Below, piece by piece: positions 9,774 to 51,041 of a DNA stretch of 64,000 nt. The translations under genes were made by a program, and so were the position numbers. The notes below the pieces were generated by a model. That model was not told where the DNA came from, made no database searches, and worked only from the letters and a program-made list of their open reading frames with translations. This DNA is from Candidatus Omnitrophota bacterium (GTDB lineage Bacteria; Omnitrophota; Gorgyraeia; Duberdicusellales; 4484-171): NCBI GenBank assembly GCA_016935525.1, contig JAFGQU010000005.1, forward strand, positions 2,190-66,189, read 5' to 3'. The stretch's first letter is position 1. Each line of letters opens with the position of its first letter.

Positions 9774-10778
9774 ATGGCGGTAGATGTTGATAATTATAAA
9801 AAAGTAGCGATTCTGCTTGTTTCGTTGGGAATTGATGTGTCGGTAGAGATCTTCAAACATCTTGACGAATGGGAGATCGAGCTGATTTCCAAGGAAATCG
9901 CTCGTCTGGGAGAATTAGAACAGGAACAGATCGATGAAGTAATTAAAGATTTTCATCAACGGTTACTCTCGGCGGCGAGCACCGAAGGAGGGTTGCAATA
10001 TTTGCGAGAAGTGCTGGAACGCGCTATCGGTCCGGCAAAAGCCATGGGGATTATCCGTCATCTCCATCAGATCCGCCCGTTCTCCTACTTGGAGAGTGTG
10101 TCCGGCTCACAGATCGCCGAGATCGTTTCCGGAGAAGACCCCCAGATCATCGCTCTGGTGCTTTCTTATTTGCCGGCAAGCCACGCCGCCGAAGCGTTCG
10201 CCCAGCTGGGAGAAGGATTAAGAAAAGAAGTCGCCGGGCGGATGGTCTTGCTTCAGGATGTACATCGGGAAGCGATCGAGAACGTGCATAAAGCTCTGGA
10301 AAAAGTAGTATCCAACCGTGAACGGCGGATGTCGGAAAAGATCTCTTTTGCCGGCGAAGGGGTAAGGACGCTGGCGAATATTTTAAATGCCGCTCCTCAG
10401 CAAGTCGAAAAAAACGTCATGGATCATTTAAAGACCCTTGATGAGACACTTGCCGAAGAAGTGCGTAACAACATGTTCTTATTCGAAGATATGGTCAAGT
10501 TTGACGATGTATCGATGCAGAAAATATTGCGTCAGGTAGATATGCGTGACCTTACGCTGTCGCTCAAACTTGCCGACGAAGCTTTAAAACAGAAAGTATT
10601 CTCTAACTTATCGGAACGCGTGCGTGAGACGTGTCAGGAAGAACTTTCTTATCTGGGCCCAGTACGATTGAAACAGGTAGAAGAAGCCCAACAGAAAGTC
10701 ATTGCCACTGTCCGCCGGCTGGAAGCTGCCGGAGAGATAGAGATACCGCACAAAGGCCAAGAGGAAAAGTTTGTGTAA
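9774..10778 (+). CDS. fliG: Flagellar motor switch protein FliG
   Basis: 334 aa. C-terminal torque-helix region (MFLFEDMVKFDD...). Conserved gene order. Confidence 0.85.
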   Translation: MAVDVDNYKKVAILLVSLGIDVSVEIFKHLDEWEIELISKEIARLGELEQEQIDEVIKDFHQRLLSAASTEGGLQYLREVLERAIGPAKAMGIIRHLHQIRPFSYLESVSGSQIAEIVSGEDPQIIALVLSYLPASHAAEAFAQLGEGLRKEVAGRMVLLQDVHREAIENVHKALEKVVSNRERRMSEKISFAGEGVRTLANILNAAPQQVEKNVMDHLKTLDETLAEEVRNNMFLFEDMVKFDDVSMQKILRQVDMRDLTLSLKLADEALKQKVFSNLSERVRETCQEELSYLGPVRLKQVEEAQQKVIATVRRLEAAGEIEIPHKGQEEKFV

Positions 10779-17539: not shown

Positions 17540-18379
17540 ATGGATTTTGCCAGTATTTTCGGTCTCTTTGCTGGAGTCACTTTAATTTTTCTTGCGATTC
17601 GCGAAAACTTTTTTCTTTTTCTCAGCGCGCCGGCGGCGATGATTACTTTCGGGGGAGCGTTTGCGGCGACCTGTCTGCACTTCCCTATAGGAGATGTCAT
17701 GAAAGTAATGAAAATCGTCAGTAAAGTATTTTTTACCCGGCCGCATAATCCTTATGACGCGGTCGAGACGATCGTCGGCCTTGCCGAAAAAGCCCGGCGC
17801 GAAGGGTTTTTGGCTCTGGAGGCGGAACTTGCCAACGTGAACGACGAGTTTCTCAAGCGGGGCGTCCAGAACGTTATCGACGGCGTGAGCCGTGACGAGA
17901 TAAAAGATACGTTGACGAAACAATTGGAGTTTCTCACTGCCCGCCATGAATCCGGGCAGGAGATCCTGGTCTCGATGGGGACGTATACTCCCGCTTTCGG
18001 GATGGCCGGTACGCTTATCGGGCTGGTTATCATGCTTTATAACCTTGATGATCCGAAAAAAGTAGGGCCGGGGATGGCGTTGGCGATCATCACGACGATG
18101 TACGGGGTACTTGCGGCGTATCTGTTTTTGATTCCTATGGCCGGGAAATTGAAAGTACGGGCTCAGCAGGAGCAGATCATTAAAGAGGTGACGATCGAAG
18201 GGATCATCTCGCTCCATGCCGGAGAAGCTCCTCGGTTAATGCGGGAAAAATTGCACGCCTATCTCGATCCGCGGATGAAAAAAATGCCTATAGGTGGAGC
18301 AAAAGCGCCGAGTCCCTCAGAAGGTGGCGTTCAGGAAAAGAAAACCGAAACGAAAGAAGAGAAAAAGGAAGGGTCATGA
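17540..18379 (+). CDS. motA: Flagellar motor stator protein MotA
   Basis: Four TM helices. MotA/TolQ/ExbB motif GTLIGLVIML...AIITTMYG. Confidence 0.85.
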   Translation: MDFASIFGLFAGVTLIFLAIRENFFLFLSAPAAMITFGGAFAATCLHFPIGDVMKVMKIVSKVFFTRPHNPYDAVETIVGLAEKARREGFLALEAELANVNDEFLKRGVQNVIDGVSRDEIKDTLTKQLEFLTARHESGQEILVSMGTYTPAFGMAGTLIGLVIMLYNLDDPKKVGPGMALAIITTMYGVLAAYLFLIPMAGKLKVRAQQEQIIKEVTIEGIISLHAGEAPRLMREKLHAYLDPRMKKMPIGGAKAPSPSEGGVQEKKTETKEEKKEGS

Positions 18380-19053
18380 AAACAAAAGGAGTCCAATTAT
18401 CAAAACCGTCTCCAGCGTGGATGCTTACCTATGGAGACATGGTAACCTTGATCCTGGTGTTTTTTGTCCTGCTGTTTACTCTTTCCGATATCAATATCGT
18501 AAAGTTCAGCAGTTTCTTTAAGAAGATGAAGAAACCGCCGGTAGTGTTGGATGAAGAACAATTGCGTCGGGTGATGCTGGAGCTGGCAAACTATGCTCAA
18601 GAGAAAGGATTAGAAGATAAAATCGGCCTGGCGATCGATCTTCAGGGATTGACCATTACGCTTACCGAGAGCATCATGTTCCGTTCCGGGCAGGCGGTTC
18701 TTATGCCGGAAGCTCTTCCGATCCTGGATGTGGTAAGCGACAAGATCATTAATCTGCCTAATCCGCTGATGATCGAAGGGCATACTGATAATATCCCGAT
18801 CCGTAACGAGAAGTTCCCTTCGAACTGGGAGCTTTCGTTGTCGCGTGCGGTGAACGTGTTGAAGTACCTTATTGAGAAAAAAGGAGTTGAACCGGCGCGT
18901 ATTTCGGCGGCAGGATATGCCGAATACCGGCCGGTCGCATCGAACGATACTCCCGAAGGGCGTGCGGGAAATAGAAGAGTCGTGTTAGTCGTGTTACGGC
19001 AGGAAATGAAAGGTTTTGAAAGTAAACCGGAGGAGGTTGAGAATGGGAACTAA
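18376..19053 (+). CDS. motB: Flagellar motor stator protein MotB (OmpA-like)
   Basis: N-terminal TM with a conserved Asp (YGDMVTLILVFF). C-terminal OmpA-like peptidoglycan-binding domain (GHTDNIPI...NRRV). Confidence 0.85.
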   Translation: MKTKGVQLSKPSPAWMLTYGDMVTLILVFFVLLFTLSDINIVKFSSFFKKMKKPPVVLDEEQLRRVMLELANYAQEKGLEDKIGLAIDLQGLTITLTESIMFRSGQAVLMPEALPILDVVSDKIINLPNPLMIEGHTDNIPIRNEKFPSNWELSLSRAVNVLKYLIEKKGVEPARISAAGYAEYRPVASNDTPEGRAGNRRVVLVVLRQEMKGFESKPEEVENGN

Positions 19054-26838: not shown

Positions 26839-27699
26839 ATGGGCATGATGAACATTGATCAAGCTGACAGTCTGCGCCGGATGATCGAAAAGATCTCTAA
26901 AGGGGTAAACCTGGGATTTTTGAATATTATGGGTTCGATATTCCCTAGAGATAAACCGATATTTGTGTTATCGGGTACGGAAAAAGAATTACTTTCTTTA
27001 AGTAACCTTTCCGGTAATCTGGGGATTGCGCTTGCGACCATGAATCAAAGAGTCGGTATTCTTGACGCTCATTCTCAGAGCGTGAACACTTCGTTGATCC
27101 TGGGAATAGACGCCCCGTTGGGCGTTGCCGATATAGAGAGCGAACGGTATTCATTGAAAGATGTCCTCTACACCGGCCCGTTACGGGTCCAGTTTTTAAA
27201 AGGGTTTGAGATCATTGAAAATATACAATTGTGGGACGGAGTGTATCGCGATCGATTCCTGCAGGATATCCAACAGTTTTTTCAGCGCGAGGCCAACGTG
27301 GTTCTTATCAATGAGATCCGTCCGCGGTTTTCCTTTATGTTGCCGAGGGTGGTGATCGTGTTTTCTCCGACCGAAGAATCAAAAATCGCCGCGTATAAAC
27401 GACTCAAAAAGATGTGTGAGGCAAACCCCGATGCCCAGGTCAGTTTTATTATTAATAACGCCCGGTCTCTGGCCGAAGCCGATAGCATTGCTGAGAACTT
27501 TATGGTTACCGCGAAGAAATTTTTGCATAAAGAAGTAAAGTATCTGGGAGTGATCGCGGTGAGTGCCGATATGGTAAAAAGCATTAAGTTGCGCCGGCCG
27601 TTTATGATCGGTTATCGTTATTCTAAGGCAGCGGAATATATCCGTATCGTAGCAAAAAACATTCTGAATGTATCGGCTCAGACCGTAACGCCGACGTAA
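26839..27699 (+). CDS. flhG: FlhG/MinD-like protein with FlhF-activating N-terminus but degenerate P-loop
   Basis: N-terminal MNIDQADSLRRMIEK matches the DQAxxLR FlhF-activator helix of FlhG. At the position of the deviant Walker A (KGGxGK[ST]) the sequence reads LSGTEKELLSLSNL, so no intact P-loop is present. Confidence 0.55.
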   Translation: MGMMNIDQADSLRRMIEKISKGVNLGFLNIMGSIFPRDKPIFVLSGTEKELLSLSNLSGNLGIALATMNQRVGILDAHSQSVNTSLILGIDAPLGVADIESERYSLKDVLYTGPLRVQFLKGFEIIENIQLWDGVYRDRFLQDIQQFFQREANVVLINEIRPRFSFMLPRVVIVFSPTEESKIAAYKRLKKMCEANPDAQVSFIINNARSLAEADSIAENFMVTAKKFLHKEVKYLGVIAVSADMVKSIKLRRPFMIGYRYSKAAEYIRIVAKNILNVSAQTVTPT

Positions 27700-27723: not shown

Positions 27724-28431
27724 ATGGGGTTTTTAGGTTTAACTACTAAAGAACGCAGTATATGGAATATGATCCAAAGTGGTGATAAAGTGCGGATAAG
27801 ACCCAAAGAAACAAAAGATAAAACCCATGGGAGTTTTGTTTCGCATATAGAAGCGGCGGCGCTCTATGTCAACACCCCGCTTGACGGAACGACTTATTTC
27901 GAGATCGCCCCCCGTACTCCGGTAGAGGTCGACATCGAAATCCTCGGTTATGGCGGAGGGCGGGTAGAATTTTCATCCCGGATCGTTTCTCAACAATGGG
28001 ACAAAAAACGGCTGACCAAGATCGCCTGTCCCCGGAAATTATCCTGGGTGCAGATGCGTCGGTACGTACGTATCGACGTGGTCGTTGATATCGAATTTTC
28101 TGTCGTCGATGCCAAGAAGCCTTCAAAGAACGTATCATTAGGATATCCCCGGTTTCAGGGGGTCACTAAGAATGTGTCTGAGGGGGGATTGATGCTTTTG
28201 GTTGCTAAATCTTCTCAGGTCGACGTGAACCAGCTGATCGACATGCAGGTAAAACTGGACCGCGATGATTCTTTTAAAGTGCGGGGAAAAATATTGCGTC
28301 AGATCGGATTACCCGTCCAGGATAAATATGTGTTAGGCGTCCAGTTTACGCATATTTCGGATGCGGATAAGGAAAAATTAAGACGGTTTATTTTTGAAAC
28401 AGGTAAAAAGAGGAATTTAAGAACAAGGTAA
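27724..28431 (+). CDS. PilZ-domain c-di-GMP receptor, YcgR/flagellar-brake-like (paralog 1 of 3)
   Basis: C-terminal PilZ motifs RRYVR (RxxxR) and NVSEGG (D/NxSxGG). N-terminal PilZN-like domain. Lies between flhG and fliA. Confidence 0.7.
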   Translation: MGFLGLTTKERSIWNMIQSGDKVRIRPKETKDKTHGSFVSHIEAAALYVNTPLDGTTYFEIAPRTPVEVDIEILGYGGGRVEFSSRIVSQQWDKKRLTKIACPRKLSWVQMRRYVRIDVVVDIEFSVVDAKKPSKNVSLGYPRFQGVTKNVSEGGLMLLVAKSSQVDVNQLIDMQVKLDRDDSFKVRGKILRQIGLPVQDKYVLGVQFTHISDADKEKLRRFIFETGKKRNLRTR

Positions 28432-28437
28432 GGTGGT

Positions 28438-29154
28438 ATGGGTATTTTTGGATTGAGCTTTAAAGAGAAAAAGGTATGGAATAGTATTGCTCCCGCAAAT
28501 AAGATCTCTGTGCGTCTTAAAGAGAGCCCTCACGACGTATATCGTAGCAATGTGATCGAAGTGACGAAAAAAATTTTGATGATCAAAACCCCGATGTTAG
28601 GGATGGTATACCTGGAAATAATGCCCAACACAGTCGCGATGCTGGAAGTCGAGATATTAAACCCTCTCAACGGCCGTATTTTCTTCTCATCAAAGATCAT
28701 TTCTCAGGAATGGATGAAAGAAAGAACTACCAGGATTGCTGTTCCCCGTTCGATAAAATGGGTCCAGCTGCGCAGGTGTTTTCGTCTGGAGATCGTATTG
28801 GATTGCGAATACGCCTTAACCGGTGCCCGGTCGCCGAAAGATAAATTTGATCTGACTTCCCCGGTCCTGTTCGGGCTGGTAAGAAACATCTCTGAGCTCG
28901 GCGTTTTTTTGATTACGGAAAATATAATTAATATAGACGTGGGAACCCAGCTTAATCTGAAAGTAAATCTTGCTCCCGGTCTTCTTTTCCGCGGCCGGGG
29001 TAAAGTATTAAGGATAGAGAAAGTGGGAGATAAGTTCGGACTTGGCATAGAATTCCTTGCCACCCGGGAGAACGACCGGGAAATGTTGCGGAAATTTATT
29101 TTCAGTACGGACCGTAAATGGAATATCAGAACACAAGAACAAGAGGCGAAATAA
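28438..29154 (+). CDS. PilZ-domain protein, YcgR-like (paralog 2 of 3)
   Basis: LRRCFRLEI (RxxxR) and RNISELGVF: the canonical GG is replaced by LG. Same architecture as paralog 1. Confidence 0.65.
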   Translation: MGIFGLSFKEKKVWNSIAPANKISVRLKESPHDVYRSNVIEVTKKILMIKTPMLGMVYLEIMPNTVAMLEVEILNPLNGRIFFSSKIISQEWMKERTTRIAVPRSIKWVQLRRCFRLEIVLDCEYALTGARSPKDKFDLTSPVLFGLVRNISELGVFLITENIINIDVGTQLNLKVNLAPGLLFRGRGKVLRIEKVGDKFGLGIEFLATRENDREMLRKFIFSTDRKWNIRTQEQEAK

Positions 29155-29182
29155 ATAACGCAAAGAGAGGCGGTGAATTTTT

Positions 29183-29902
29183 ATGGGAATTTTTTGGTTG
29201 AATAGAACTGAACGAACTATATGGCGTTCAATACAGCCGAACGATATCGTTAAATTCATGTTACAGGATGATCCTCAGGAGATTTACGGTACGAAAGTGG
29301 TCCGGGTAAAAGACAAATCGATCACGGTCGTCACCCCTTTAATCGAAGGAGCTTACCTGGAACTTTTGCCCCAGACTCCCCTCCAGCTGGAATTGTATAC
29401 TTCCGTATTCGGTAAAATCCGCTTTATTTCTCATGTGCTGGGACAGGAATGGATTAAAGACCAGGTGCTCGAGATCTCCCGCCCCCGCCGGCTTACCCGG
29501 ATACAATTAAGACGTTATTATAGGATCGAGGCGGTATTAGAGGTAGATTACGTGGTCTTTTCATCTACCGGAGCGCATCTGCCGGGTGAGGCCCGGCAAT
29601 ATGCTCCTTATCGTGCCGTAACGAAAAACATCTCGGAAACCGGAATGATGTTCGTCGGCGACCACAGTTTGAATAAGGGCGATTATATTGATATGAAGAT
29701 CAAAGTGACGTATCCGCCGGAAAGCCAGTTGGATTCCGAAGAAGTGAAAGCTCGCGGGAGGATTGTCCGGTGTACTCAGATCGAAGTCGGTAGCCGTTAC
29801 GCGGTAGCAATAGAGATAGGTAAGATCGATGCAGAGAATCAGGAAAGGTTGAGAAGATATATCTTCCATAAGGGAAGAGATCTCTACTCGCGTACCAAAT
29901 GA
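29183..29902 (+). CDS. PilZ-domain protein, YcgR-like (paralog 3 of 3)
   Basis: LRRYYRIEA (RxxxR) and KNISETGMMF: GG replaced by TG. Same length and N-terminal MGIFxL motif as the other paralogs. Confidence 0.65.
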   Translation: MGIFWLNRTERTIWRSIQPNDIVKFMLQDDPQEIYGTKVVRVKDKSITVVTPLIEGAYLELLPQTPLQLELYTSVFGKIRFISHVLGQEWIKDQVLEISRPRRLTRIQLRRYYRIEAVLEVDYVVFSSTGAHLPGEARQYAPYRAVTKNISETGMMFVGDHSLNKGDYIDMKIKVTYPPESQLDSEEVKARGRIVRCTQIEVGSRYAVAIEIGKIDAENQERLRRYIFHKGRDLYSRTK

Positions 29903-30294
29903 AAAAAGCGTCGGAAATCCGCAGTATATTCGCGGCAGTAGCTTTATTAAGTTTTCTGCTTGTTGAGTTGTTCAGTTTTGTGAGAGGTTACTCGCTTACT
30001 ACGATCCTTGTGCGAGGGGTCGGGGTATATGTGGGTATTATTTTTCTGGGTGCGGTGTTTATCTATGTAGTCAAAAGCACCGATATTTTTAAAGTAATCA
30101 GTCAATTAGAAAAAGATGATTCCGATGTTTCCCAAAAGTCTTCGTTAGATATAAAAATAGACGATTCTTTCGATATCGGCCAAAGCCAAGAGAAAAAAGA
30201 GTATAATCCCATGGAAGACATAAAAGAAGCGGTAGCGAGAAACCCTAAAGAGATCGCCAGCGCTATCAAGAAAATGATGGGGCATAAGAAATAA
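29899..30294 (+). CDS. Small membrane protein with acidic C-terminal tail
   Basis: Two TM helices then a D/E/K-rich tail. Immediately upstream of fliA. Confidence 0.3.
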   Translation: MKKASEIRSIFAAVALLSFLLVELFSFVRGYSLTTILVRGVGVYVGIIFLGAVFIYVVKSTDIFKVISQLEKDDSDVSQKSSLDIKIDDSFDIGQSQEKKEYNPMEDIKEAVARNPKEIASAIKKMMGHKK

Positions 30295-30300
30295 GGAGGA

Positions 30301-31020
30301 GTGACGTTCAACACTATGCAGAAACAGGAAACGCCGATCGCCCGCGAGAAAATACTGGAATACCTGCCTTTGATTAAAAAGGTGGTTTCCCGGATATTTC
30401 CCAGTATCCCTTCCCAGCTTGTCGATTTTGAAGATCTGGTGGGATATGGGATCGTGGGGTTGATTGAAGCGATGAATACGTATGATTCTAAAAAAGGCGT
30501 CAAACTCTCTACGTATGCGTTTTATCGTATTCGCGGCGCGATACTCGATGCATTACGTTCTTTTGATTGGATTCCCCGGCAGATGAGAAAAAAATTCCAT
30601 ATAATATCACAAGGTTTGAACGAACTTACGGCTTTATTAGGCCGGGAACCGACGAGCGAAGAGGTTGCCGCCCATGTAAAGATGGACCCTCAGGAAGTAG
30701 ATTCTTTATTAATGGATATTTCCCAAAGTGAAGTCCTCTCTTTAGAAGACCAGCTGCACAATTACCTTAAACAGAAGACCGATAATTTCTTGAATATGAA
30801 CGAATTCGAGTTTGAAGATCTGAAAAAAGCGATGAGCCAGGCGATTGATGAACTCCCCGAACGGGAACGCCTGGTCCTGGTCCTGTATTATTATGAAGAG
30901 CTCAATTTAAAAGAGATCGGCAAAGTCCTGGAGATATCCGAATCACGGATTTCCCAGATCTTGAAAAAAGCGACGGTTCATCTGCGGGAAAAACTGGATT
31001 TTATAGAAAAAGAGCTGTGA
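30301..31020 (+). CDS. fliA: Flagellar sigma factor FliA (sigma-28/SigD)
   Basis: Region 2 (LSTYAFYRIRGAILDALR). Region 4.2 HTH (LKEIGKVLEISESRISQILKKA). Size ~239 aa. An alternative ATG start is at 30316. Confidence 0.85.
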   Translation: MTFNTMQKQETPIAREKILEYLPLIKKVVSRIFPSIPSQLVDFEDLVGYGIVGLIEAMNTYDSKKGVKLSTYAFYRIRGAILDALRSFDWIPRQMRKKFHIISQGLNELTALLGREPTSEEVAAHVKMDPQEVDSLLMDISQSEVLSLEDQLHNYLKQKTDNFLNMNEFEFEDLKKAMSQAIDELPERERLVLVLYYYEELNLKEIGKVLEISESRISQILKKATVHLREKLDFIEKEL

Positions 31021-33624: not shown

Positions 33625-34587
33625 ATGAGGAATGATAAAGATATCTTATCGCCTAAAGAAATAGAGGACCTGGTAAAGGGTTCCGACGATATGAATATGG
33701 GCGAAAAAACGGTGTATCCGTACGATTTTCGTTCTCCCAGTCTTCTTTCTAAAGGGAAATTGAGGATCTTCCAGCTGTTGATGGAAGAATTTGTCAGCCA
33801 GATACAAAGTTTTGTAGCGGCTCAACTCAAGATCCCTCTGGAGGTACAGATCGGCGATATCCGTCAAAGCGCGTATAGCCAGTTCCAGGAACGGAATGAA
33901 GAGACGTTTATGGTGGTATTCAATATGCCTCCGCTTGAGGGGACGTCGATCCTTGAGATTAAACTCCCTTTTATTATTTTCATCAATCAGGTCCTTCTGG
34001 GAAAAGCGCTTGAAAAATTTCCTGAACCGCGCGCGATTACTCCGGTCGAAGAAGAGACCGCGACATTTCTGGCCGAACGGTTCCTGTATACGCTGCAGGA
34101 ATCATTCAGCAAACTGATTAAATTCAATTTCAATATCATATCGAAAGAACGTAACCCGCAGCTCTTGTTTCTTGCTTCTCCGGACGAACCGACCGTAATC
34201 GTTTCGGTGCAGTTCAAGCTTGGTGAAGAAGTGAGCCAGATCGATTTTTGTTTCCCTTATATCGTGTTCAATTCGCTTCTGCCGTATCTCGATGTGAAGA
34301 AATGGTTTTCGATTACTCAACGTAAAAAAGACGAACGGATCGATAAACTCATCAAAGACAATATTGAAAACATTAAAGTAGATCTGGTATGCGAACTTGG
34401 CTCGTTGGATCTCGCGTTGCGGGAGATACTGCATCTGGAAAAAGGCGATTATCTTTGCCTGAACGTCGATAACGACGCTCTGCTTAATTTAAAGATCGGT
34501 AATTTCAAGAAATTTAAAGTGTTTCCGGGGATTTCTCATAAAAAAGTCGCGTTACGTATCGAAAAAATAATAGATGAAGGGAGGTAA
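33625..34587 (+). CDS. fliM: Flagellar motor switch protein FliM
   Basis: N-terminal CheY-P-binding peptide ILSPKEIEDLV (cf. LSQDEIDALL). ~320 aa with a C-terminal SpoA-like domain (LEKGDYLCLNVDNDALLNLKIGNFKKFKVFPG). Confidence 0.8.
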   Translation: MRNDKDILSPKEIEDLVKGSDDMNMGEKTVYPYDFRSPSLLSKGKLRIFQLLMEEFVSQIQSFVAAQLKIPLEVQIGDIRQSAYSQFQERNEETFMVVFNMPPLEGTSILEIKLPFIIFINQVLLGKALEKFPEPRAITPVEEETATFLAERFLYTLQESFSKLIKFNFNIISKERNPQLLFLASPDEPTVIVSVQFKLGEEVSQIDFCFPYIVFNSLLPYLDVKKWFSITQRKKDERIDKLIKDNIENIKVDLVCELGSLDLALREILHLEKGDYLCLNVDNDALLNLKIGNFKKFKVFPGISHKKVALRIEKIIDEGR

Positions 34588-41327: not shown

Positions 41328-42788
41328 ATGCCCGATTTAAAAGTATTGATCATCAATCCGCCGGTACGGTTTGACGACAAGCCGCGAAATCTCCCTCATG
41401 GCTTGGCAATTCTTGCCAATATTATCCGTAATAAAATGAACATCACCCCGCAATTCTTAGATATCAATGCGTTCCGGTATTCACCGGAGCGATTAAGCGA
41501 AATCCTCAAAACTTCCGATTTTAACGTTGTCCTTATCGGCGGGATCGCCTCAGCCTACCGTCAGATCGTGGAATTGTCCCGGTTGGTCAAAGAGATCGTG
41601 CCGCAGGCAATGATCATCGCCGGCGGATATGTGGTCATGCCGGTCCCGACCCTTTTATTGCAGAATTCTGCGGTAGATATAGTCTGCACCGGAGAAGGGG
41701 AACTTACTATAGTCGAATTATTGGACCGGTTGAGTATACAGGGATTTAATGCCGATATTTCCGATATCGCCGGGGTCTGTTATAAGCCACGAACCGGCGC
41801 ACCGTTTCATTGTACCGGGCCGCGCCGACTTATCGATGATCTTGATGCGACGAGTGCGATGCCGGCATATGACCTGTTGCCGATGGATGTGTATCTTTCT
41901 AATCCGGTCGTGGGAATAGGCCGTGATATCGATATGGTTACTATCCGCGGATGTCCTTATCAATGTTCTTTTTGTTACCAACCCTGGGGGAGGGTCCCGA
42001 GAAGTTATTCGATCGATACTATTGCCGGTACGATCCACACGTTACGCCGGGAATATCGGGTCGATTTCATATCGTTTCAGGATGACGAATTTATGGTTGA
42101 TGAAACCAGAGTAAAAGAGTTTTGTGAGCGGCGTAACCGGCTGTTCCCCGAAGTCCTCTGGTCCTGTACGGGCCGAAGCAATATCATCGCCCGTAACCCC
42201 GATATCGTCAAACTTATGAAACAATCAGGATGTACGCTTATCTCCTGCGGATTCGAATCGGGTTCGCCAAGGATGCTGGAAAGTATGCATAAGATGCAAA
42301 GAATAGATCAAATGGAAGCTACAGTCAAGATCCTCCGGGCCCAGGAGTTGCCGGTTCCGGCATCGTTCATCATCGGTATGCCGGGAGAAGACGAGGCAAG
42401 TTGTCAGGAAACGCTCGATTTTTGTCTACGCAATAATCTGCCGCTTGAGTCACTGATGTTTGCGACTCCTTATCCCGGTACGGAGATTTTTGACTTCGCG
42501 CTTAAGACCGGCCGGGTCGATAAAGACCATATTCATGAATTCATGATGGAACTGGGCGATGCCCGGAAATTCGTGGTCAATCTTACCGACAGTTTTTCCG
42601 ATGAAGGGCTTGTTGCCACACGTACCGAGATGATGGCGATCGCCCGTAAAAATTACGAGAAATTTATCTCGCAAAATGAGATAATGGATAAGATGAAAAA
42701 ACTGTTCGGCCCGCTTTTAGAGCGAGTGCGCCTTGATGAGACCGATTTAGCACACCGGGCAAAACACGGGGGGATGAGCACGTTTTGA
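41328..42788 (+). CDS. B12-binding radical SAM enzyme (class B rSAM, likely methyltransferase-type)
   Basis: N-terminal B12-binding Rossmann-like region. CxxxCxxC motif (CPYQCSFC). 486 aa. First gene of the sugar island. Confidence 0.7.
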   Translation: MPDLKVLIINPPVRFDDKPRNLPHGLAILANIIRNKMNITPQFLDINAFRYSPERLSEILKTSDFNVVLIGGIASAYRQIVELSRLVKEIVPQAMIIAGGYVVMPVPTLLLQNSAVDIVCTGEGELTIVELLDRLSIQGFNADISDIAGVCYKPRTGAPFHCTGPRRLIDDLDATSAMPAYDLLPMDVYLSNPVVGIGRDIDMVTIRGCPYQCSFCYQPWGRVPRSYSIDTIAGTIHTLRREYRVDFISFQDDEFMVDETRVKEFCERRNRLFPEVLWSCTGRSNIIARNPDIVKLMKQSGCTLISCGFESGSPRMLESMHKMQRIDQMEATVKILRAQELPVPASFIIGMPGEDEASCQETLDFCLRNNLPLESLMFATPYPGTEIFDFALKTGRVDKDHIHEFMMELGDARKFVVNLTDSFSDEGLVATRTEMMAIARKNYEKFISQNEIMDKMKKLFGPLLERVRLDETDLAHRAKHGGMSTF

Positions 42789-42790
42789 AG

Positions 42791-42872
42791 GTCACAAGGA
42801 CACACGTCACACGTCACACGTGATGGGGAGAAAATGTTTTTCGTGTGTCTATGTGGCTATGTGTCGTGTGAC
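42791..42872. repeat. GTCACA-rich long palindromic intergenic repeat (copy 1 of 4)
   Basis: gtcacaaggacacacgtcacacgtcacacgtg...cgtgtgtctatgtggctatgtgtcgtgtgac. Its translation produced the spurious N-terminus (MFFVCLCGYVSC) of the next ORF. Confidence 0.7.
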
Positions 42873-42890
42873 TTTAATAAAGGAGTAACA

Positions 42891-43610
42891 TTGAGTATAT
42901 TTTCACTGATCGTCGCCCGTAAAGGGAGTAAAGGATTGCCGAATAAGGTGGTCCGGAAGATCAACGGCAAATATGTATTTCAATATTCGGTAGAATATTC
43001 CTGTTCGTTATCGGATATCATCAAAGAAGAAGTCGTGACTGCGGTATCTTCTGATTGCGAGGAGATTAAAGAATATTGTGCCGGACAGAACGTTGTGTTC
43101 ATCGACCGCCAGGCACATCTCGCTTCCGATCAGGTAAAGATCGAAGAGGTGATCTATGATGCCTACAGTAAGGGAGGGAACCGTTGTGAATATGTCTCTT
43201 TGCTGTACGGAAACATCCCTACCCGGTACCCTGAGGAATTTAAACGGGCATTCGATTTTTTAGAAGCGCATACAGATTATGATGCCGCGCTCAGCATGCA
43301 GAATGTCGAAAAATATAATCCGGCCTGGATGTTTGCGTTACACGAAGAACTATTACCGGAAAAAGACCTGCGAGGATACCGCCGTCAGGACCTGGAACAG
43401 TTCATGATTCATGACGGCCATACCATCCTTTTCCGTGCGGGATATTTTGTCCGGTTCATGGAGAGTCGCCGGGCGGCAAGAAAGATGTATGAACAATTCG
43501 GCGAAAAGATAAAACCGGTATTATGTAACCGGCTGATTATCGATGTGGATACCGAAAGAGATCTTATAGCCGCCGAGGCAATATTGAAATATAACAATGG
43601 AGGGGTATAG
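42891..43610 (+). CDS. CMP-nonulosonic acid synthetase (NeuA/PseF/LegF-like cytidylyltransferase)
   Basis: IVARKGSKGLPNKV is the cytidylyltransferase signature. TTG start at 42891 with RBS aaaggag at 42879-42885. The ORF track starts at 42834, inside the repeat. Confidence 0.7.
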   Translation: MSIFSLIVARKGSKGLPNKVVRKINGKYVFQYSVEYSCSLSDIIKEEVVTAVSSDCEEIKEYCAGQNVVFIDRQAHLASDQVKIEEVIYDAYSKGGNRCEYVSLLYGNIPTRYPEEFKRAFDFLEAHTDYDAALSMQNVEKYNPAWMFALHEELLPEKDLRGYRRQDLEQFMIHDGHTILFRAGYFVRFMESRRAARKMYEQFGEKIKPVLCNRLIIDVDTERDLIAAEAILKYNNGGV

Positions 43611-43700
43611 GAAATATGCTTCGCGAAATACATAGAAATACGCTTACGCGAAATACAATTGTATTTCCATGCATTTCTATTGTATTTCAACTGTATTTCG
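43611..43700. repeat. GAAATAC/GTATTTC word palindrome in intergenic spacer
   Basis: gcgaaatacatagaaatacgcttacgcgaaatacaa / ttgtatttccatgcatttctattgtatttcaactgtatttcg is an imperfect long hairpin. Confidence 0.55.
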
Positions 43701-43704
43701 ATAT

Positions 43705-44757
43705 ATGAGTTTAAAGAAGAGAATACGCATAGGCAATAAAGTGATCGGCGAAGGAAAACCTTGTTTCATCATCGCTGAGGCCGGGGTGAACCATAACGGG
43801 AAGATCCGTCTGGCCAAGCGTCTCATCGATGCGGCAAAGACTGCCGGCGCCGACGCGGTAAAGTTTCAGACGTTTACCGCGGGCGAACTGGTCGGAGAAG
43901 ACATCGCCTTGGCCGGATATCAGAAAAAGAATATGCCCCGGATGAAAAACCAGAAAGAGATGCTGGCAACATTAGAGCTTACCGCGAAAGATTTCGTCAT
44001 GCTCAAGAAATATTGCGATAAAAAAAAGATCGTTTTTCTTTCAACGCCGCATACCGAAGGAGCGCTTGCGATACTCGAGGATATCGTGCCGGCGTATAAG
44101 GTCGCATCCGGCGATATTACCAATATCCCGTTTTTAATAAAAATCGCAAAAAAGAAAAAACCGGTGATCCTTTCGACCGGAATGGCGACGTTAAAAGAGG
44201 TCCAGACCGCAGTCGGTGCCGTAACACGCTATACCGATAAACTGGTGGTACTCCATTGTACGACGAACTATCCCTGTCCGGCAGATGAGGTGAATCTGCG
44301 GGCGATGGATACATTAAAAGAAAAAGGTAAAAACCTTACCGGTTATTCCGATCATACTTCAGGCTATGAGATCTCTCTTGCGGCAGTCGCCCTCGGCGCG
44401 GTCATAATCGAAAAACACCTTACGTTAGACCGGACCTTACCCGGGCCGGACCATCGGGGGAGCCTCACCCCGGGAGAATTTAAAGCTATGATAAAAGCTA
44501 TCCGTATTGTCGAGAGATCGCTGGGCAGTGCTAAGAAAGAACCGACGGTACATGAAAGGAAAATAGCTTCGGTCGTACGTAAAAGTATCGTTGCCCACGT
44601 AGCGATCGATAAAGGAACACAGATCGTTCCGGATATGGTGACTGTCCGTCGTCCGGCCACTGGGATCGCGCCTTATGAGATCAGCCGGGTTATCGGGAAA
44701 AAGGTAAAAAAAAATATCCCAGCAAATACTGTGCTTACGTGGGGAATGCTTATATAA
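43705..44757 (+). CDS. neuB: Nonulosonic acid synthase (NeuB/PseI/LegI family) with C-terminal SAF domain
   Basis: IGEGKPCFIIAEAGVNHNG signature. Start moved to ATG 43705, outside the palindrome. Confidence 0.85.
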   Translation: MSLKKRIRIGNKVIGEGKPCFIIAEAGVNHNGKIRLAKRLIDAAKTAGADAVKFQTFTAGELVGEDIALAGYQKKNMPRMKNQKEMLATLELTAKDFVMLKKYCDKKKIVFLSTPHTEGALAILEDIVPAYKVASGDITNIPFLIKIAKKKKPVILSTGMATLKEVQTAVGAVTRYTDKLVVLHCTTNYPCPADEVNLRAMDTLKEKGKNLTGYSDHTSGYEISLAAVALGAVIIEKHLTLDRTLPGPDHRGSLTPGEFKAMIKAIRIVERSLGSAKKEPTVHERKIASVVRKSIVAHVAIDKGTQIVPDMVTVRRPATGIAPYEISRVIGKKVKKNIPANTVLTWGMLI

Positions 44758-44779
44758 TGAAAAAAGGGAGATATACGGT

Positions 44780-46279
44780 ATGATCTCAAAATCGCCTTAT
44801 GGCGATACGTTTAAATATGAAATCGATGATACGTTCGAACGCGAAAAAATCGACGCGTTCCTGAAAAAAAGGAAAACCGTCGTCGTCCAGGGGTTAGGGT
44901 TTGTCGGCTCGGCCATGGTCGCGGCGCTTGCGTTAAGCCGCGCTCAGGACGGTTCTCTGCGGTATAACGTGATCGGGGTCGATCTGCCGGATGAAAAAAA
45001 TTTCTGGAAGATCGCCCGGATAAATAACGGAGTCCCTCCGGTACGTTCGTTTGACAAAAAGATGGACGAAGCGTATGCGCAGGCATCTCAAAATAAAAAT
45101 GTCCTTGCTACATATAGTCCCTATGCTTACAGTAAAGCCGATGTGGTGGTCATCGATATCCATCTCGATATCAAAAAAAAGGAACTGGGCGCGCCATATG
45201 AATACGAATTTTCTTACGATGGGTTTAAAACAGCGATTGAAACCGTCGCTCAACATATCGTTGAGGATACTCTGGTGATCATAGAGACTACCGTTCCCCC
45301 GGGAACGACCGAACAGGTAGTGTATCCGCTGTGTAAAGAAGTATTCTCCCGCCGCGGGTTGGATATCAATAAATTATATCTGGCTCATTCCGGAGAACGG
45401 GTCATGCCGGGGACGAACTATCTTGATTCGATCGTGAATTTTTATCGGGTTTATTCCGGTATCAATAGCGAATCAAAAATCCGGGCGCGGGAATTTTTTG
45501 AATCGTTTGTGAATACCCGGGATTTTCCTATTACTGAGATGCATTCACCGACGGCGTCGGAGATGGTGAAGGTACTGGAAAACTCCTATCGTGCCGTCAA
45601 CATCGCGTTTATCCAGGAGTGGACCGAATTTGCCGAGGAGGCCGATGTGAATTTATTTGAAGTGGTCAAGACTATCCGTAAGCGTCCTACTCATCAGAAC
45701 ATCATGTGGCCGGGATTCGGGGTGGGGGGGTATTGTCTCACTAAAGACGCGTTATTGGCCGATTGGGCGTACCGGAATCTGTTCAATAAAGAAGAAAATC
45801 TCGGTATGTCGCTGGCAGCGATCGGAATAAACGATCTTATGCCGGAATTCACTTTTGAATTATTACAACGGGAGTTGCTCGACGACCTTAACGGAAAATA
45901 TATCACTATTTTAGGCGTTTCTTATCTTAACGATGTCGCCGATACCCGTTCGTCGCCTACCCAGGTTTTTTATGAGATGTGCGAAAACCGCGGGGGCCGT
46001 CTCACCGTTCATGATCCGCTGGTGAGTTTCTGGCCGGAAAAACAATTAGAAATAGATACCGACATAAAAAATCTAGCCGATAAAAAGCATGATATTGCCG
46101 TATTTGCCGTACGTCACCATGAGTACGTAACCCTTTCGGCTAAAGAAATCCGGGAAATCCTTCCCGGAGTAAGGATCATTATCGACGCCAATAACGTATT
46201 GACTGATGAGACAGCGCGCGAACTTGCTCAAGCCGAGATCATCGTAACCGGCGTCGGTAAAGGACATTGGAACCTGTAG
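44780..46279 (+). CDS. Nucleotide-sugar dehydrogenase (UDP-glucose/GDP-mannose dehydrogenase family)
   Basis: N-terminal Rossmann VVVQGLGFVGSAMVAALA. 499 aa. Confidence 0.6.
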   Translation: MISKSPYGDTFKYEIDDTFEREKIDAFLKKRKTVVVQGLGFVGSAMVAALALSRAQDGSLRYNVIGVDLPDEKNFWKIARINNGVPPVRSFDKKMDEAYAQASQNKNVLATYSPYAYSKADVVVIDIHLDIKKKELGAPYEYEFSYDGFKTAIETVAQHIVEDTLVIIETTVPPGTTEQVVYPLCKEVFSRRGLDINKLYLAHSGERVMPGTNYLDSIVNFYRVYSGINSESKIRAREFFESFVNTRDFPITEMHSPTASEMVKVLENSYRAVNIAFIQEWTEFAEEADVNLFEVVKTIRKRPTHQNIMWPGFGVGGYCLTKDALLADWAYRNLFNKEENLGMSLAAIGINDLMPEFTFELLQRELLDDLNGKYITILGVSYLNDVADTRSSPTQVFYEMCENRGGRLTVHDPLVSFWPEKQLEIDTDIKNLADKKHDIAVFAVRHHEYVTLSAKEIREILPGVRIIIDANNVLTDETARELAQAEIIVTGVGKGHWNL

Positions 46280-46287
46280 AAAGGATG

Positions 46288-46373
46288 GTCACAAGGTCAC
46301 ATAGACACATAGTCACACGTAATAGAATATCAATTTGTCTTGACGTGTGACCTGTGACGTGTGACTGTGTGAC
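46288..46373. repeat. GTCACA-rich long palindromic intergenic repeat (copy 2 of 4)
   Basis: gtcacaaggtcacatagacacatagtcacacgt-[AT loop]-gacgtgtgacctgtgacgtgtgactgtgtgac. Confidence 0.75.
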
Positions 46374-46385
46374 TTTTAAAAAAGT

Positions 46386-47378
46386 ATGAGTAAGATATTG
46401 ATTACCGGAGGAGCAGGGTTTATCGGATATTTTGTTGCCGAAAAACTGTCCCAAAATCCCGAGAATCAAATCACGGTACTGGATAATCTGTCCCGCGGCT
46501 GTAACGACAAAGAATTCGAAACTCTTTGCGCAAAATCCAACGTTACGTTTGTCCAGGGAGATCTGACTTCTCAGGCTACGATTGATGATATCAGCCGGGA
46601 TTATGAATATATATACCATCTTGCCGCTCTGGTCGGGGTGAAAAACGTAAAAGACGCGCCGGACCGGGTGCTTTCGGTAAATATCCGTTCGACATTGAAC
46701 CTTTTTGAAGCTGCCCGCAGTTTTTACCGGTTACGAAAGATATTCTTTTCATCGACCAGTGAGGTCTATGCCGGTACGTTCATGCATTTTGCGGTAGGAG
46801 TACCGACATCGGAATCGGTTCCTCTGGCCGTGAGCGATATTACTTCGGCCCGGTCTACGTACGCGATAAGTAAGATGTGCGGAGAATCAATATGTTTTTC
46901 TTACGGTGAAAAGTACCAGATCCCTTTTGTCATCGGCCGGTATCATAACGTGTATGGCCCGCGGATGGGTTGGGCGCATGTGATCCCGGAGATGTATGCC
47001 AAGATCACCAACAATGCCGAACTTACCGTGACTTCTCCCGGCCATAGCCGGGCGTTCTGTTATATTGACGATGCCGTAGAATTTACGGTCCGGCTTACCG
47101 AACATTACCAGACTGAAGGAGAAATATTCCATATCGGCAATCCCACCGAAGAGATCAGGATAAAAGACCTGGTCAAACTTATCGCCCGGGTGATGAATCG
47201 TCAGGTGTTTGTAGAGACCGGAAGAGATATGCCGGGTTCTCCGCATCGGCGTTGTCCGGATACCGCAAAAGCCGAGCGGCGTACCGGATATCGGGCGAAC
47301 ATCGCGTTAGAAGAAGGGGTGAAGAAAACATATCAATGGTATCAATCACGGCTCGATTCTTATGAGGAAGGCCGCTAA
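46386..47378 (+). CDS. NAD-dependent sugar epimerase/4,6-dehydratase (SDR, LegB/PseB-like)
   Basis: ILITGGAGFIGYFVAEKL glycine-rich NAD motif. 330 aa. Confidence 0.7.
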   Translation: MSKILITGGAGFIGYFVAEKLSQNPENQITVLDNLSRGCNDKEFETLCAKSNVTFVQGDLTSQATIDDISRDYEYIYHLAALVGVKNVKDAPDRVLSVNIRSTLNLFEAARSFYRLRKIFFSSTSEVYAGTFMHFAVGVPTSESVPLAVSDITSARSTYAISKMCGESICFSYGEKYQIPFVIGRYHNVYGPRMGWAHVIPEMYAKITNNAELTVTSPGHSRAFCYIDDAVEFTVRLTEHYQTEGEIFHIGNPTEEIRIKDLVKLIARVMNRQVFVETGRDMPGSPHRRCPDTAKAERRTGYRANIALEEGVKKTYQWYQSRLDSYEEGR

Positions 47379-47383
47379 ATGCA

Positions 47384-47405
47384 GTCGTTCGTCGTTGGTC
47401 GTTCG
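47384..47405. repeat. Reverse-complement copy of the CGAACGA heptamer repeat
   Basis: gtcgttcgtcgttggtcgttcg directly after the stop codon. Followed by AGAGACTAG word repeats at 47448-47470. Confidence 0.5.
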
Positions 47406-47473
47406 TATTTAGTGGGAAAATATAATACAAAACAGAAACTATATACCAGAGACTAGAGACCGGAGACTAGAAT

Positions 47474-48571
47474 ATGGAACTGGACGCTCCTAATATTGGC
47501 CAATTAGAGAAAGAATATCTCAACAAGGTGCTTGAGAGTAATTTTATTTCGACGTTCGGCCCTTATGTCAACGATTTTGAAGAAAAATTTGCCACCCGGT
47601 TACACGCGACATCTGCGGTATCGACGCAAAGCGGGACTGCCGCGTTACATGTCACGCTTTGCGAATTAGGGATAAAAGCCTCAGATGAAGTGATCGTTCC
47701 CGCGCTCACTTTTGTCGCGACAGCTAATCCCGTAGTCTATACCGGGGCGCACCCGGTATTTGTCGATGTCGACCTTCATACCTGGAATATCCTGCCGGAG
47801 GAGATCGAAGAGGCGATCACGCCGCGTACTCGCGCGATCATTCCCGTGCATTTTTACGGGAACCCCTGCGCGATGGATAAGATCATGAATATTGCCCAAA
47901 AACATGATCTTTATGTGATCGAGGATGCGACTGAAAGCCTGGGCGCGTCTTTCGGCGGGCAGTATACCGGTACGTTCGGTGATTTCGGATGTTTTAGTTT
48001 TAACGGGAATAAGATAATTACTACCGGTGGCGGGGGGATGGTCCTGGGGAAAGACCATACACAGTTAGAACATATCCGGTTTCTGGTAAACCAGGCCCGT
48101 GACGGTTCGCGGGGATTCTTTCATCCGGAGATAGGATTTAATTATCGGATGACCAATCTTGAAGCCGGGTTAGGGCTTGCCCAGCTTACCAGGCTGGACG
48201 ATTTTTTAGAGAAAAAGAAAGGATTCAATACACTGTACCGTAAAGAACTTACCCCTATCGCTGAAATAGGGTTTCAGGCGGAATACCCCTGCGCTGAGAG
48301 TTCCTGGTGGTTTACCGGTATTACCGTCAAAGAAAAGATGGATGCCGCGACGTTGCAGCAGAAGTTAAAAGAGAAAAATATTCCGTCACGGCGGGTATTC
48401 ATGCCGCTGGTAGAATTTCCTCCGTATAAAGAGCATAAGAAAAGAGAATATACACACAGTTATGAAATCTATAATCGCGGGTTATGCCTGCCGTCTTCCA
48501 CGCTCAATACGTCTGACGATATATATGAGGTATGTAAGGCCATAAAGGAAATTTTTGGGAAGAAATACTAA
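47474..48571 (+). CDS. DegT/DnrJ/EryC1-family sugar aminotransferase (PseC/LegC-like)
   Basis: 365 aa. N-terminal fold motifs and GGGGMV. Lysine region typical of the family. Confidence 0.75.
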   Translation: MELDAPNIGQLEKEYLNKVLESNFISTFGPYVNDFEEKFATRLHATSAVSTQSGTAALHVTLCELGIKASDEVIVPALTFVATANPVVYTGAHPVFVDVDLHTWNILPEEIEEAITPRTRAIIPVHFYGNPCAMDKIMNIAQKHDLYVIEDATESLGASFGGQYTGTFGDFGCFSFNGNKIITTGGGGMVLGKDHTQLEHIRFLVNQARDGSRGFFHPEIGFNYRMTNLEAGLGLAQLTRLDDFLEKKKGFNTLYRKELTPIAEIGFQAEYPCAESSWWFTGITVKEKMDAATLQQKLKEKNIPSRRVFMPLVEFPPYKEHKKREYTHSYEIYNRGLCLPSSTLNTSDDIYEVCKAIKEIFGKKY

Positions 48572-48578
48572 TGGGAGA

Positions 48579-48663
48579 GTCATAAGGTCACAAAGACACA
48601 TAGTCACACGTAAGAAATGTTTAATGTATTCAGACGTGTGTCGTGTGACATGTGACGTGTGAC
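48579..48663. repeat. GTCACA-rich long palindromic intergenic repeat (copy 3 of 4)
   Basis: gtcataaggtcacaaagacacatagtcacacgt-[loop]-gacgtgtgtcgtgtgacatgtgacgtgtgac. Confidence 0.75.
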
Positions 48664-48682
48664 TTTCCAGCGGAGCTGGATT

Positions 48683-49327
48683 ATGAAAGAAGAAATTATA
48701 TTAATCGGCGGCGGTGGACATTGTAAATCCTGTATTGACGTGATCGAAAAAGGAGAAATATTCTCGATCGCCGGAATAGTCGATGTGAACGAAAAGGTGA
48801 ATCTCGATGTGTTGGGATATAAGATCTTCGCGACCGACGAAGAATTGCCCGGACTGGTCAAAGAATACGATTTCTTTCTGGTCACGCTCGGCCAGATCAA
48901 AATCGCCGAACCGCGGAAAAAAATATTTTCGTTTTTAAAAGGATTAGGCGCGAACCTCCCGGTGATACTCTCTCCCCGCTCATCGGTCGCCGCCTCATCC
49001 AGTATCGACGAGGGTACGATAGTGATGCATGATGTGATCGTGAATTCGCAAACCTCGATCGGAAAAAACTGCATCCTGAACAACAAATCCTGTATCGAAC
49101 ATGACGTCCATATCGGTGATCATTGCCATATTTCTACGGCAGCGATCATCAACGGCAACTGTACCGTTGATGAGGGGGCTTTTATCGGCAGCAACAGCGT
49201 GATCAATAATGGAGTGTATATCGGTAAGCATGTGGTGATCGGCGCCGGGAGCGTGGTGATCCATTCGATCGAAGAGGCTGGTATCTATGCCGGCAACCCG
49301 GCAGAAAAGATAGGGGATATTACTTGA
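48683..49327 (+). CDS. Hexapeptide-repeat sugar N-acetyltransferase (PglD/NeuD/LegH-like)
   Basis: N-terminal ILIGGGGHCKSCIDVIE Rossmann-like part plus left-handed beta-helix hexapeptide repeats. Start moved to ATG 48683, outside the repeat. Confidence 0.7.
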   Translation: MKEEIILIGGGGHCKSCIDVIEKGEIFSIAGIVDVNEKVNLDVLGYKIFATDEELPGLVKEYDFFLVTLGQIKIAEPRKKIFSFLKGLGANLPVILSPRSSVAASSSIDEGTIVMHDVIVNSQTSIGKNCILNNKSCIEHDVHIGDHCHISTAAIINGNCTVDEGAFIGSNSVINNGVYIGKHVVIGAGSVVIHSIEEAGIYAGNPAEKIGDIT

Positions 49328-49338
49328 TCTTAAGTAAA

Positions 49339-49405
49339 GTCACACGTCACAAAGTCACATAGACACACGTTGAAGAATCAATGCGTGTGTCGTGTGACAT
49401 GTGAC
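49339..49405. repeat. GTCACA-rich long palindromic intergenic repeat (copy 4 of 4)
   Basis: gtcacacgtcacaaagtcacatagacacacgt-[loop]-gcgtgtgtcgtgtgacatgtgac. Confidence 0.75.
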
Positions 49406-49458
49406 TCACGAATAGACGTTCTGTGATGATTGGTTTAGTGGCAGAATAAGGATAAAGA

Positions 49459-50625: not shown

Positions 50626-50657
50626 GACTTGGACTTTTAGAGCGTGAGCGAATAAAA

Positions 50658-50974
50658 GTCCGTAGTCGAATTGAACCCTTGACATTTTTCGATGGGCATT
50701 ATTTATTACGTTTACATTTTAGAATGTGCTGATGGTACTAAGTATTATGGTCATACAGATGATTTAAGAAAACGTATTGTTTCCCACTCGAAAGGGTATG
50801 TCTATTCAACAAAAAATAAAAGGCCGTTGCAGTTGATTTATTATGAAGAACACGATTCACGTTCAGCGGCGTTTAAAAGAGAGATGCAGTTTAAAAATGG
50901 CAAGACACGAAAAAAAAACCATAGAGGAAATGATAGGTTCATTTTCTCAAGAAAAATGTCAAGGGTTCAATTCG
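50658..50974. mobile_element. Compact GIY-YIG element bounded by perfect 23-bp inverted repeats
   Basis: Left IR cgaattgaacccttgacattttt (50666-50688). Right IR aaaaatgtcaagggttcaattcg (50953-50974). Inserted between the neuC-like gene and the CBS-nucleotidyltransferase gene. Confidence 0.6.
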
Positions 50975-51015
50975 TGCCTGTGACTTATGTTCACTCGATA
51001 AAGCTCGTTCCATAA
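50692..51015 (+). CDS. GIY-YIG nuclease family protein
   Basis: YYVYILECADGTKYYGHTDDLRKRIVSH...KREMQFKNGKTRKKN is a canonical GIY-YIG/URI motif. The 3' end of the ORF reads through the right IR. Confidence 0.75.
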   Translation: MGIIYYVYILECADGTKYYGHTDDLRKRIVSHSKGYVYSTKNKRPLQLIYYEEHDSRSAAFKREMQFKNGKTRKKNHRGNDRFIFSRKMSRVQFVPVTYVHSIKLVP

Positions 51016-51041
51016 GTCACGCACTCATTGAAGGAGCTATC

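Follow-up and report, generated by a model that had tools for sequence, protein, structure and literature searches.

Three consecutive genes encoding MotI-like, two-domain PilZ proteins were identified within the flagellar gene cluster of a Candidatus Omnitrophota bacterium, in a 64,000-nucleotide (nt) stretch of contig JAFGQU010000005.1 (assembly GCA_016935525.1; hereafter the window). The explanation that we favour as probable is that the three are functional members of the MotI/YcgR family, paralogous to one another, and act as cyclic di-GMP (c-di-GMP)-dependent motor effectors with a divided role. The genes follow one another on the plus strand between an FlhG-like gene and fliA, at the positions described in an earlier reading of the same DNA made from its letters only (the sequence-only reading). 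Copy 1 (27724-28431) encodes 235 amino acids (aa) in a PilZN(R)-PilZ arrangement, copy 2 (28438-29154) encodes 238 aa with a PilZN-like half and a PilZ domain, and copy 3 (29183-29902) encodes 239 aa in a PilZNR-PilZ arrangement. Pairwise identity among the three proteins is 29-39%.

The PilZ profile (PF07238; Pfam cut-off, 22.5 bits) was recovered in all three proteins, with 57.8, 41.2 and 55.2 bits for copies 1, 2 and 3, respectively. The N-terminal half gave a mixed result. The PilZNR profile (PF12945; cut-off, 23 bits) passed in copy 3 (25.4 bits), remained sub-threshold in copy 1 (19.3 bits) and had no match in copy 2, and the N-domain postulated for every copy was thus recognized by profile in copy 3 only. 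AlphaFold2 (AF2) modelling of copies 2 and 3 gave predicted local distance difference test (pLDDT) scores of 85.3 and 83.6, respectively; in both models a pair of beta-barrels is accompanied by a long C-terminal helix and by a short N-terminal one (residues 8-16). Copy 1 aligned with copies 2 and 3 from end to end. The di-domain layout, with a PilZN/PilZNR barrel before the PilZ domain, is therefore seen in the profile match of copy 3, in the models of copies 2 and 3 and, by alignment, in copy 1.

Foldseek searches with the models of copies 2 and 3 returned MotI as the top match for both, followed by VCA0042/PlzD, MrkH, PP4397 and E. coli YcgR; the matches spanned 217-254 aligned columns, and those of the full-length models to MotI (5vx6) 217-229. 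When the paralog profile was compared with solved structures, MotI/YpfA (5vx6) was the only significant full-length relative (E value, 1.2e-9 with a six-sequence and 2.9e-15 with a 26-sequence profile). The E. coli-type YcgR equivalog model (NCBIfam NF047947; cut-off, 400 bits) gave 12.6 bits for copy 1 and no match for copies 2 and 3. The two beta-barrels and single C-terminal helix of the models are not the arrangement of the tetrameric PilZ type (FlgX/XCC6012), in which a helical insertion builds the tetramer and the c-di-GMP motifs are usually altered or missing, and the tetrameric-PilZ entries 3rqa and 3ph1 were weak, partial Foldseek matches (E value ≥ 1e-3) far below MotI. Judged by profile and predicted fold, the copies belong, as MotI-like members, to the di-domain PilZ family of YcgR type and are not orthologs of the enterobacterial YcgR, which bears out the two-domain YcgR/MotI-type tandem of the sequence-only reading.

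The common N-terminus of the three proteins (M-G-x-x-x-L...E...W) was also confirmed as a real and conserved feature. An exhaustive HMMER search, which covered 1.84 billion cluster representatives, gave 2214 matches at E ≤ 1e-3 and only 24 at E ≤ 1e-30; word-indexed homolog searches returned 2 and 7 matches, and the family was visible only by the exhaustive search. Of two metagenome scans, the first found no locus and the second found two. Nearly all of the top-scoring HMMER matches align from residue 1, and the peptide MG[ILFW]F.L...E...W is present in nearly all top-scoring sequences inspected. Below these sequences the scores drop to 102 and then to about 88 bits, the level of the general pool of ~220-aa PilZNR-PilZ proteins, and the peptide is not found in the five representatives inspected just beneath the drop. 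A membrane-binding amphipathic helix was considered for this peptide and not adopted, the hydrophobic moment being unremarkable and inconsistent among the copies (0.26-0.62). The public gene model of copy 1, a protein of 220 aa, begins at Met16 and leaves off 15 codons (27724-27768). Because the omitted codons encode the N-terminal peptide that is kept in all paralogs and orthologs, the longer start is, by this comparison, the correct one. An exact-sequence look-up of full-length copy 1 found no match because the public model starts 15 codons later; proteins identical to copies 1 and 2 occur in a metagenome-assembled genome (MAG) labelled "Candidatus Omnitrophica bacterium" at NCBI.

The c-di-GMP signature consists of RxxxR and (D/N)xSxxG (bioRxiv 10.1101/2020.02.11.943704); PMC8322970 gives the signature, after Galperin & Chou 2020, as "RxxxRhxh, DhSxxG". 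The motif strings given in the sequence-only reading were confirmed, namely RRYVR (R112xxxR116) and NVSEGG in copy 1, RRCFR and NISELG in copy 2, and RRYYR and NISETG in copy 3. That reading took the change from GG to LG and TG as a graded degeneration of the motif, a view that did not hold. The G/L/T difference sits at the fifth position (x5) of (D/N)xSxxG, which is a free x, and all three copies thus carry both motifs in complete, canonical form. Loss or decay of the motif was rejected on this ground. In a 26-sequence subfamily alignment, the only invariant columns were M1, L6, P103, R112, R116, S152 and G155, with N/D150 conserved. The ligand-contact residues are thus the most conserved portion of these proteins, and no sign was found of the c-di-GMP-independent variants that had been suggested.

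Variation at x5 was surveyed in the 147 closest cluster representatives having both motifs. Glycine was found in 114, serine in 15 and asparagine in 8, and the 33 representatives with a residue other than glycine indicate that glycine is favoured and not obligatory. Within the array the residue follows the paralog: it is leucine in each of the three copy-2 orthologs, threonine in each of the three copy-3 orthologs and one further sequence (P0008), and glycine in copy 1 and most of the remaining members, while representatives grouping with copy 2 (at only 51% bootstrap) have arginine or lysine. "Degeneration" is a misnomer because the x5 residue is constant within each ortholog group; a conserved, paralog-specific substitution beside the predicted ligand site, lineage-specific and stable, is a fair description.

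A second difference lies just before RxxxR. Residue 111 is methionine or leucine in the three copies and leucine, methionine or valine in 24 of the 28 sequences of the flagellar-locus clade, in which arginine often follows directly after the first Arg of RxxxR. The same position is arginine, giving RRxxxR, in the outgroup sequences, in MotI and in five of the eight sequences of the sister clade. The representative of this sister clade (N-terminus MGWF...; P0024, L006 6001-6708), itself with RRxxxR, is encoded by a lone gene flanked by groEL and guaB, outside any flagellar locus. In PlzD, the non-basic residue L135 before RxxxR has been linked to monomeric c-di-GMP binding (bioRxiv 10.1101/2020.02.11.943704), and by analogy a residue other than arginine at position 111 may shift the c-di-GMP stoichiometry from dimer to monomer.

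Divergence among the copies was analyzed with their positional orthologs from two related loci, L001 and L002, in which the triplet recurs with unchanged gene order; every copy is an intact open reading frame (ORF) in these three genomes. Each copy is 54-73% identical to its orthologs, and each of the three ortholog groups received 100% support in a neighbor-joining (NJ) bootstrap tree. The ratio of nonsynonymous to synonymous substitution rates (dN/dS) between L001 and L002 was 0.115 for copy 1, 0.051 for copy 2 and 0.070 for copy 3 (dS, 0.7-1.0), with 0.021 for fliA and 0.177 for a small membrane ORF as comparison genes. Forty-one alignment columns were fixed inside the ortholog trios and different between them; 29 of these columns lie in the PilZ domain, among them column 115 inside RxxxR, column 119 after it and column 154 (x5). 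Copy 1 is the fastest evolving and copy 3 the most divergent, the latter differing from the other two at 17 of the 31 diverged sites that have two states. The low identity among the copies speaks against a recent duplication or a gene conversion, and both were rejected. As far as these comparisons tell, the three copies are old, diverged and maintained under strong purifying selection; simple redundancy or decay is unlikely for this reason, and the sub-functionalisation proposed in the sequence-only reading is plausible.

Comparison of related loci placed the array in a conserved gene order: flhA, flhF, an extra ~250-aa ORF at some loci, the FlhG-like gene, one or more PilZ genes, a small membrane ORF and fliA. 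Three PilZ copies are present in the window, L001, L002 and L005, two in L004 and L015, at least two in L003, where the contig ends, and one in L009 and L010; the named records are labelled as Omnitrophota or as generic "Planctomycetia" MAGs. In the outgroup loci L011 and L018, a single YcgR-like gene directly follows a canonical flhG and precedes che genes, and in L017 the YcgR-like gene stands alone. The sequence-only reading held that Firmicutes-type flagellar loci usually carry one brake or clutch gene at this place; a single copy there is true of two of the three informative outgroup loci and does not extend to the third. Because L011 and L018 have a YcgR-like gene there, the PilZ slot downstream of flhG is read as ancestral and its multiplication as specific to this clade. 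The deep groups of the NJ tree, a "first-position" lineage of copies 1 and 2 and a group of copy 3 with three other representatives, are weakly supported, and the L005 triplet may be partly independent in origin.

The array is embedded in a flagellar supercluster that occupies ~6.7-62 kb of the window on the plus strand only (scanned ORFs), with a sugar-biosynthesis island as the sole break. The supercluster contains flgB/C, fliF, fliG, fliH, flgE, motAB, fliN/O/P/R, flhB/A/F, fliA, fliM (33625-34587), genes for the rod and the L and P rings, flgM/N, flgK/L, the flagellin gene, fliD/S/W and maf. A "Firmicutes-type" locus, as it had been called, does not fit the taxonomy, the source being an Omnitrophota MAG with L- and P-ring genes. 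Upstream of the triplet lie flhA, flhF and the FlhG-like gene. The gaps between the copies are 6 nt (copies 1 and 2) and 28 nt (copies 2 and 3), and copy 3 and a downstream 131-aa ORF share the letters ATGA at their stop and start codons. Co-transcription of the triplet within a flagellar operon is likely in view of these short gaps and the overlap. In the 25-32 kb region, the number of promoter- and terminator-like patterns did not exceed that seen in shuffled sequence.

Among characterized proteins, family members bind c-di-GMP and then the motor: MotI binds MotA, FlgZ binds MotC, and YcgR binds FliG, FliM and MotA (PMC8203827). The B. subtilis protein MotI (YpfA/DgrA), a c-di-GMP-dependent clutch on MotA (PMC8203827), is the best profile and fold match of the copies and shares with them the PilZNR-PilZ layout, a length of about 217-240 aa and motifs of the RxxxR and NxSxGG type. 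Identity to MotI in structural alignments is only 16-20%; MotI has RRxxxR where the copies have [L/M]RxxxR, and it lacks their conserved 16-residue N-terminal peptide. The MotI gene also lies outside the fla/che operon. YcgR from E. coli and from Salmonella (5y6f) and FlgZ/PP4397 of Pseudomonas (3kyf), both effectors in their c-di-GMP-loaded form, have the same PilZN-PilZ fold (Foldseek E value, ~1e-7 to 1e-8); the copies differ from them in taxonomy and operon position, and their N-domain is PilZNR-like and not the classical PilZN of YcgR. PlzD (VCA0042) of Vibrio cholerae (2rde/3kyg) has the same two-domain fold, and its L135 parallels the methionine or leucine at residue 111. It is distant in sequence and is one of five dispersed Vibrio Plz paralogs, whereas the copies are in tandem in a flagellar cluster. 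The YcgR-GAZ proteins of Leptospirales are likewise a lineage-specific expansion of YcgR-like proteins, with 3-8 per genome, in which the ligand residues are kept and other surfaces diverge (PMC11800159). They carry an inserted GAF-like domain that the copies lack, and their genomic context is described as uninformative; no tandem array in a flagellar operon is reported for them (PMC11800159), in contrast to the copies. No description of such an array was found in the searchable literature, and a literature search found no paper connecting Omnitrophota flagella and PilZ.

In the explanation that we favour, the array would have arisen by old, lineage-specific tandem duplications of a single YcgR-like gene downstream of flhG, from a state resembling that of the single-copy relatives L009 and L010 and of the two outgroup loci. 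Each protein has an N-terminal PilZN/PilZNR barrel and a C-terminal PilZ barrel that would bind c-di-GMP, and a c-di-GMP-loaded copy would dock on the MotA stator, the FliG rotor or both, so that rotation is slowed or disengaged. MotA and FliG are proposed as targets because known family members dock on the motor and because the corresponding genes lie in the same cluster. The stator genes motA and motB (17540-19053, plus strand; motA at 17540-18379) encode a possible target by analogy with MotI and FlgZ, and fliG (9774-10778, plus strand) encodes an alternative one by analogy with E. coli YcgR (PMC8203827). The copies would split the task by responding to different c-di-GMP thresholds or by using different motor surfaces; the divided role is proposed in view of the paralog-specific fixed differences, which concentrate in the PilZ domain at or near both ligand motifs. 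A full-length c-di-GMP-I riboswitch (Rfam RF01051; 62820-62904, plus strand), followed by an intrinsic terminator, scored 88.9 bits (E value, 2.7e-16) against a gathering score of 35, and the presence of this predicted aptamer in the window shows that the organism signals with c-di-GMP.

Several points weigh against this explanation. No GGDEF, EAL or HD-GYP gene was found among the ~59 window ORFs scanned against Pfam. Leucine and threonine at x5 are rare among the surveyed representatives (1 and 2 of 147, respectively), so that a weakened c-di-GMP binding of copies 2 and 3 is conceivable. Neither MotI nor YcgR has an equivalent of the conserved N-terminal peptide, and the explanation does not account for this element. 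Support for the deep nodes of the paralog tree is only ~50-60%, which leaves the order of the duplications uncertain. Finally, the organism is uncultured, and both ligand binding and motor docking are predictions.

The genes on either side of the array were also compared. The FlhG-like gene (26839-27699, plus strand) has weak ParA/MinD matches; its product retains the N-terminal FlhF-activating motif DQAxxLR and has SGTEKELLSLS where the Walker A P-loop SGKGGVGK[ST] is expected. Walker A is lost in all six FlhG-like orthologs examined (window, L002-L005 and L009), whereas the outgroup FlhG of L011 has both the canonical Walker A and DQAxxLR, and the FlhG-like protein is probably an FlhG without ATPase activity. 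Between copy 3 and fliA (30301-31020, plus strand; FliA/sigma-28, TIGR02479, 247 bits) lies a small hydrophobic ORF (29899-30294, plus strand) that was not mentioned in the sequence-only reading. It encodes 131 aa, probably a membrane protein, and has no Pfam match. In L001, L002, L005, L009 and L015, a small membrane ORF with 26-51% identity likewise separates fliA from the PilZ gene(s); it is missing in L004. The extra ORF between flhF and the FlhG-like gene comprises 250 aa in L009 and L010; the L009 product resembles a coiled-coil protein, with a sub-threshold hit to DUF6377 as its sole match. A gap of similar size is present in L004, L005 and L015, and no extra ORF is found there in the window, L002 and L003.

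The position of the triplet directly between the FlhG-like gene and fliA raises the alternative that at least one copy remains a c-di-GMP receptor and has been re-targeted off the motor, to FlhF/FlhG-like control of flagellar placement and number or to FliA/FlgM activity. The FlhG-like proteins of the inspected loci of this clade, which keep DQAxxLR and have no Walker A, and the deviating residues of copy 3 would suit such a change, as would the Leptospira YcgR-GAZ paralogs, which are proposed to have gained partners with c-di-GMP binding retained (PMC11800159). The adjacency itself is little informative, as the position after flhG is ancestral and is also found with canonical FlhG in L011 and L018; moreover, the single-copy loci L009 and L010 already have a degenerate FlhG, so that duplication is not tied to the loss of Walker A. 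Such partners are putative, and we regard this alternative as unlikely.

Slightly more doubtful is the view that the copies serve the motor constitutively as structural components, possibly assembled as a hetero-oligomer, and stabilize the stator or rotor instead of acting as a signal-dependent brake. A precedent is FlgX of Campylobacter jejuni, a PilZ-family protein of the tetramer-forming type that is described as stator-associated and as a structural scaffold (PMC11725899). This role would be in keeping with genes located within the core flagellar operon and apparently co-transcribed with flhA/F/G and fliA, with the tight linkage to a conserved membrane ORF, and with the subfamily-specific N-terminal peptide as a possible docking element. 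The copies differ from FlgX in their monomeric, two-domain MotI-type fold, to which 3rqa and 3ph1 are far poorer matches than MotI, and in their complete c-di-GMP motifs. The invariance of the ligand-contact residues across the subfamily would be unexpected if c-di-GMP were irrelevant and argues against a c-di-GMP-independent role; in addition, one or two copies suffice in close relatives.

A narrower proposal, that the trio forms a multi-threshold or multi-target motor controller particular to this Omnitrophota clade, with graded instead of on/off output, is held to be slightly less probable again. It would require affinities set by x5 and by residues within RxxxR, partners such as MotA, FliG, or FlhF together with the ATPase-dead FlhG-like protein, and docking by way of the N-terminal peptide particular to the clade and of the small membrane protein that would be co-translated. 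That the copies are redundant and kept only for dosage, or that one or two are decaying, is very improbable: the tandem array, uniform in architecture and motifs, would suit this view, but the copies are far less similar to each other (29-39%) than to their orthologs across genomes (54-73%), dN/dS is 0.05-0.12 in every copy, the ORFs are intact throughout the three genomes sharing the triplet, and 41 columns are fixed in a paralog-specific manner.

The array represents a well-known family that has undergone a modest, lineage-specific expansion in an uncultured phylum; it is not a new kind of system. Should the copies differ in c-di-GMP affinity or motor partner, they would provide a compact natural case in which one messenger exerts graded control over a motor, and, if confirmed, brake and clutch biology would be extended to Omnitrophota, a largely uncultured phylum. 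At present, the analysis corrects an over-reading of the motifs and documents that a MotI-like gene occurs in a conserved series of one, two and three copies at one fixed place in the operon; it offers no new mechanism and is of use to annotation and to comparative studies of c-di-GMP effectors.

Two further regions of the window were recorded. The sugar island (41328-52115) encodes radical SAM, cytidylyltransferase, NeuB, dehydrogenase, epimerase, aminotransferase and acetyltransferase proteins of nonulosonic-acid/sugar biosynthesis, and a Maf-like glycosyltransferase is encoded at 59307-61178, inside the flagellar cluster. The embedded island, together with this enzyme, suggests flagellin glycosylation. 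The riboswitch lies where the flagellar cluster ends on its downstream side, with a strong terminator hairpin and T-run 3' of it (~62947-62980). It is separated from the next gene by an ORF-free stretch of ~900 nt; the next long ORF, which encodes a signal-peptide protein, starts at ~63880 and runs off the window. The ORF-free stretch holds direct repeats, four to five in number, which share the core GTTTTCCTTACCTAAGCCCA, lie at 63339-63615 (plus strand) and are spaced 66-93 nt apart.

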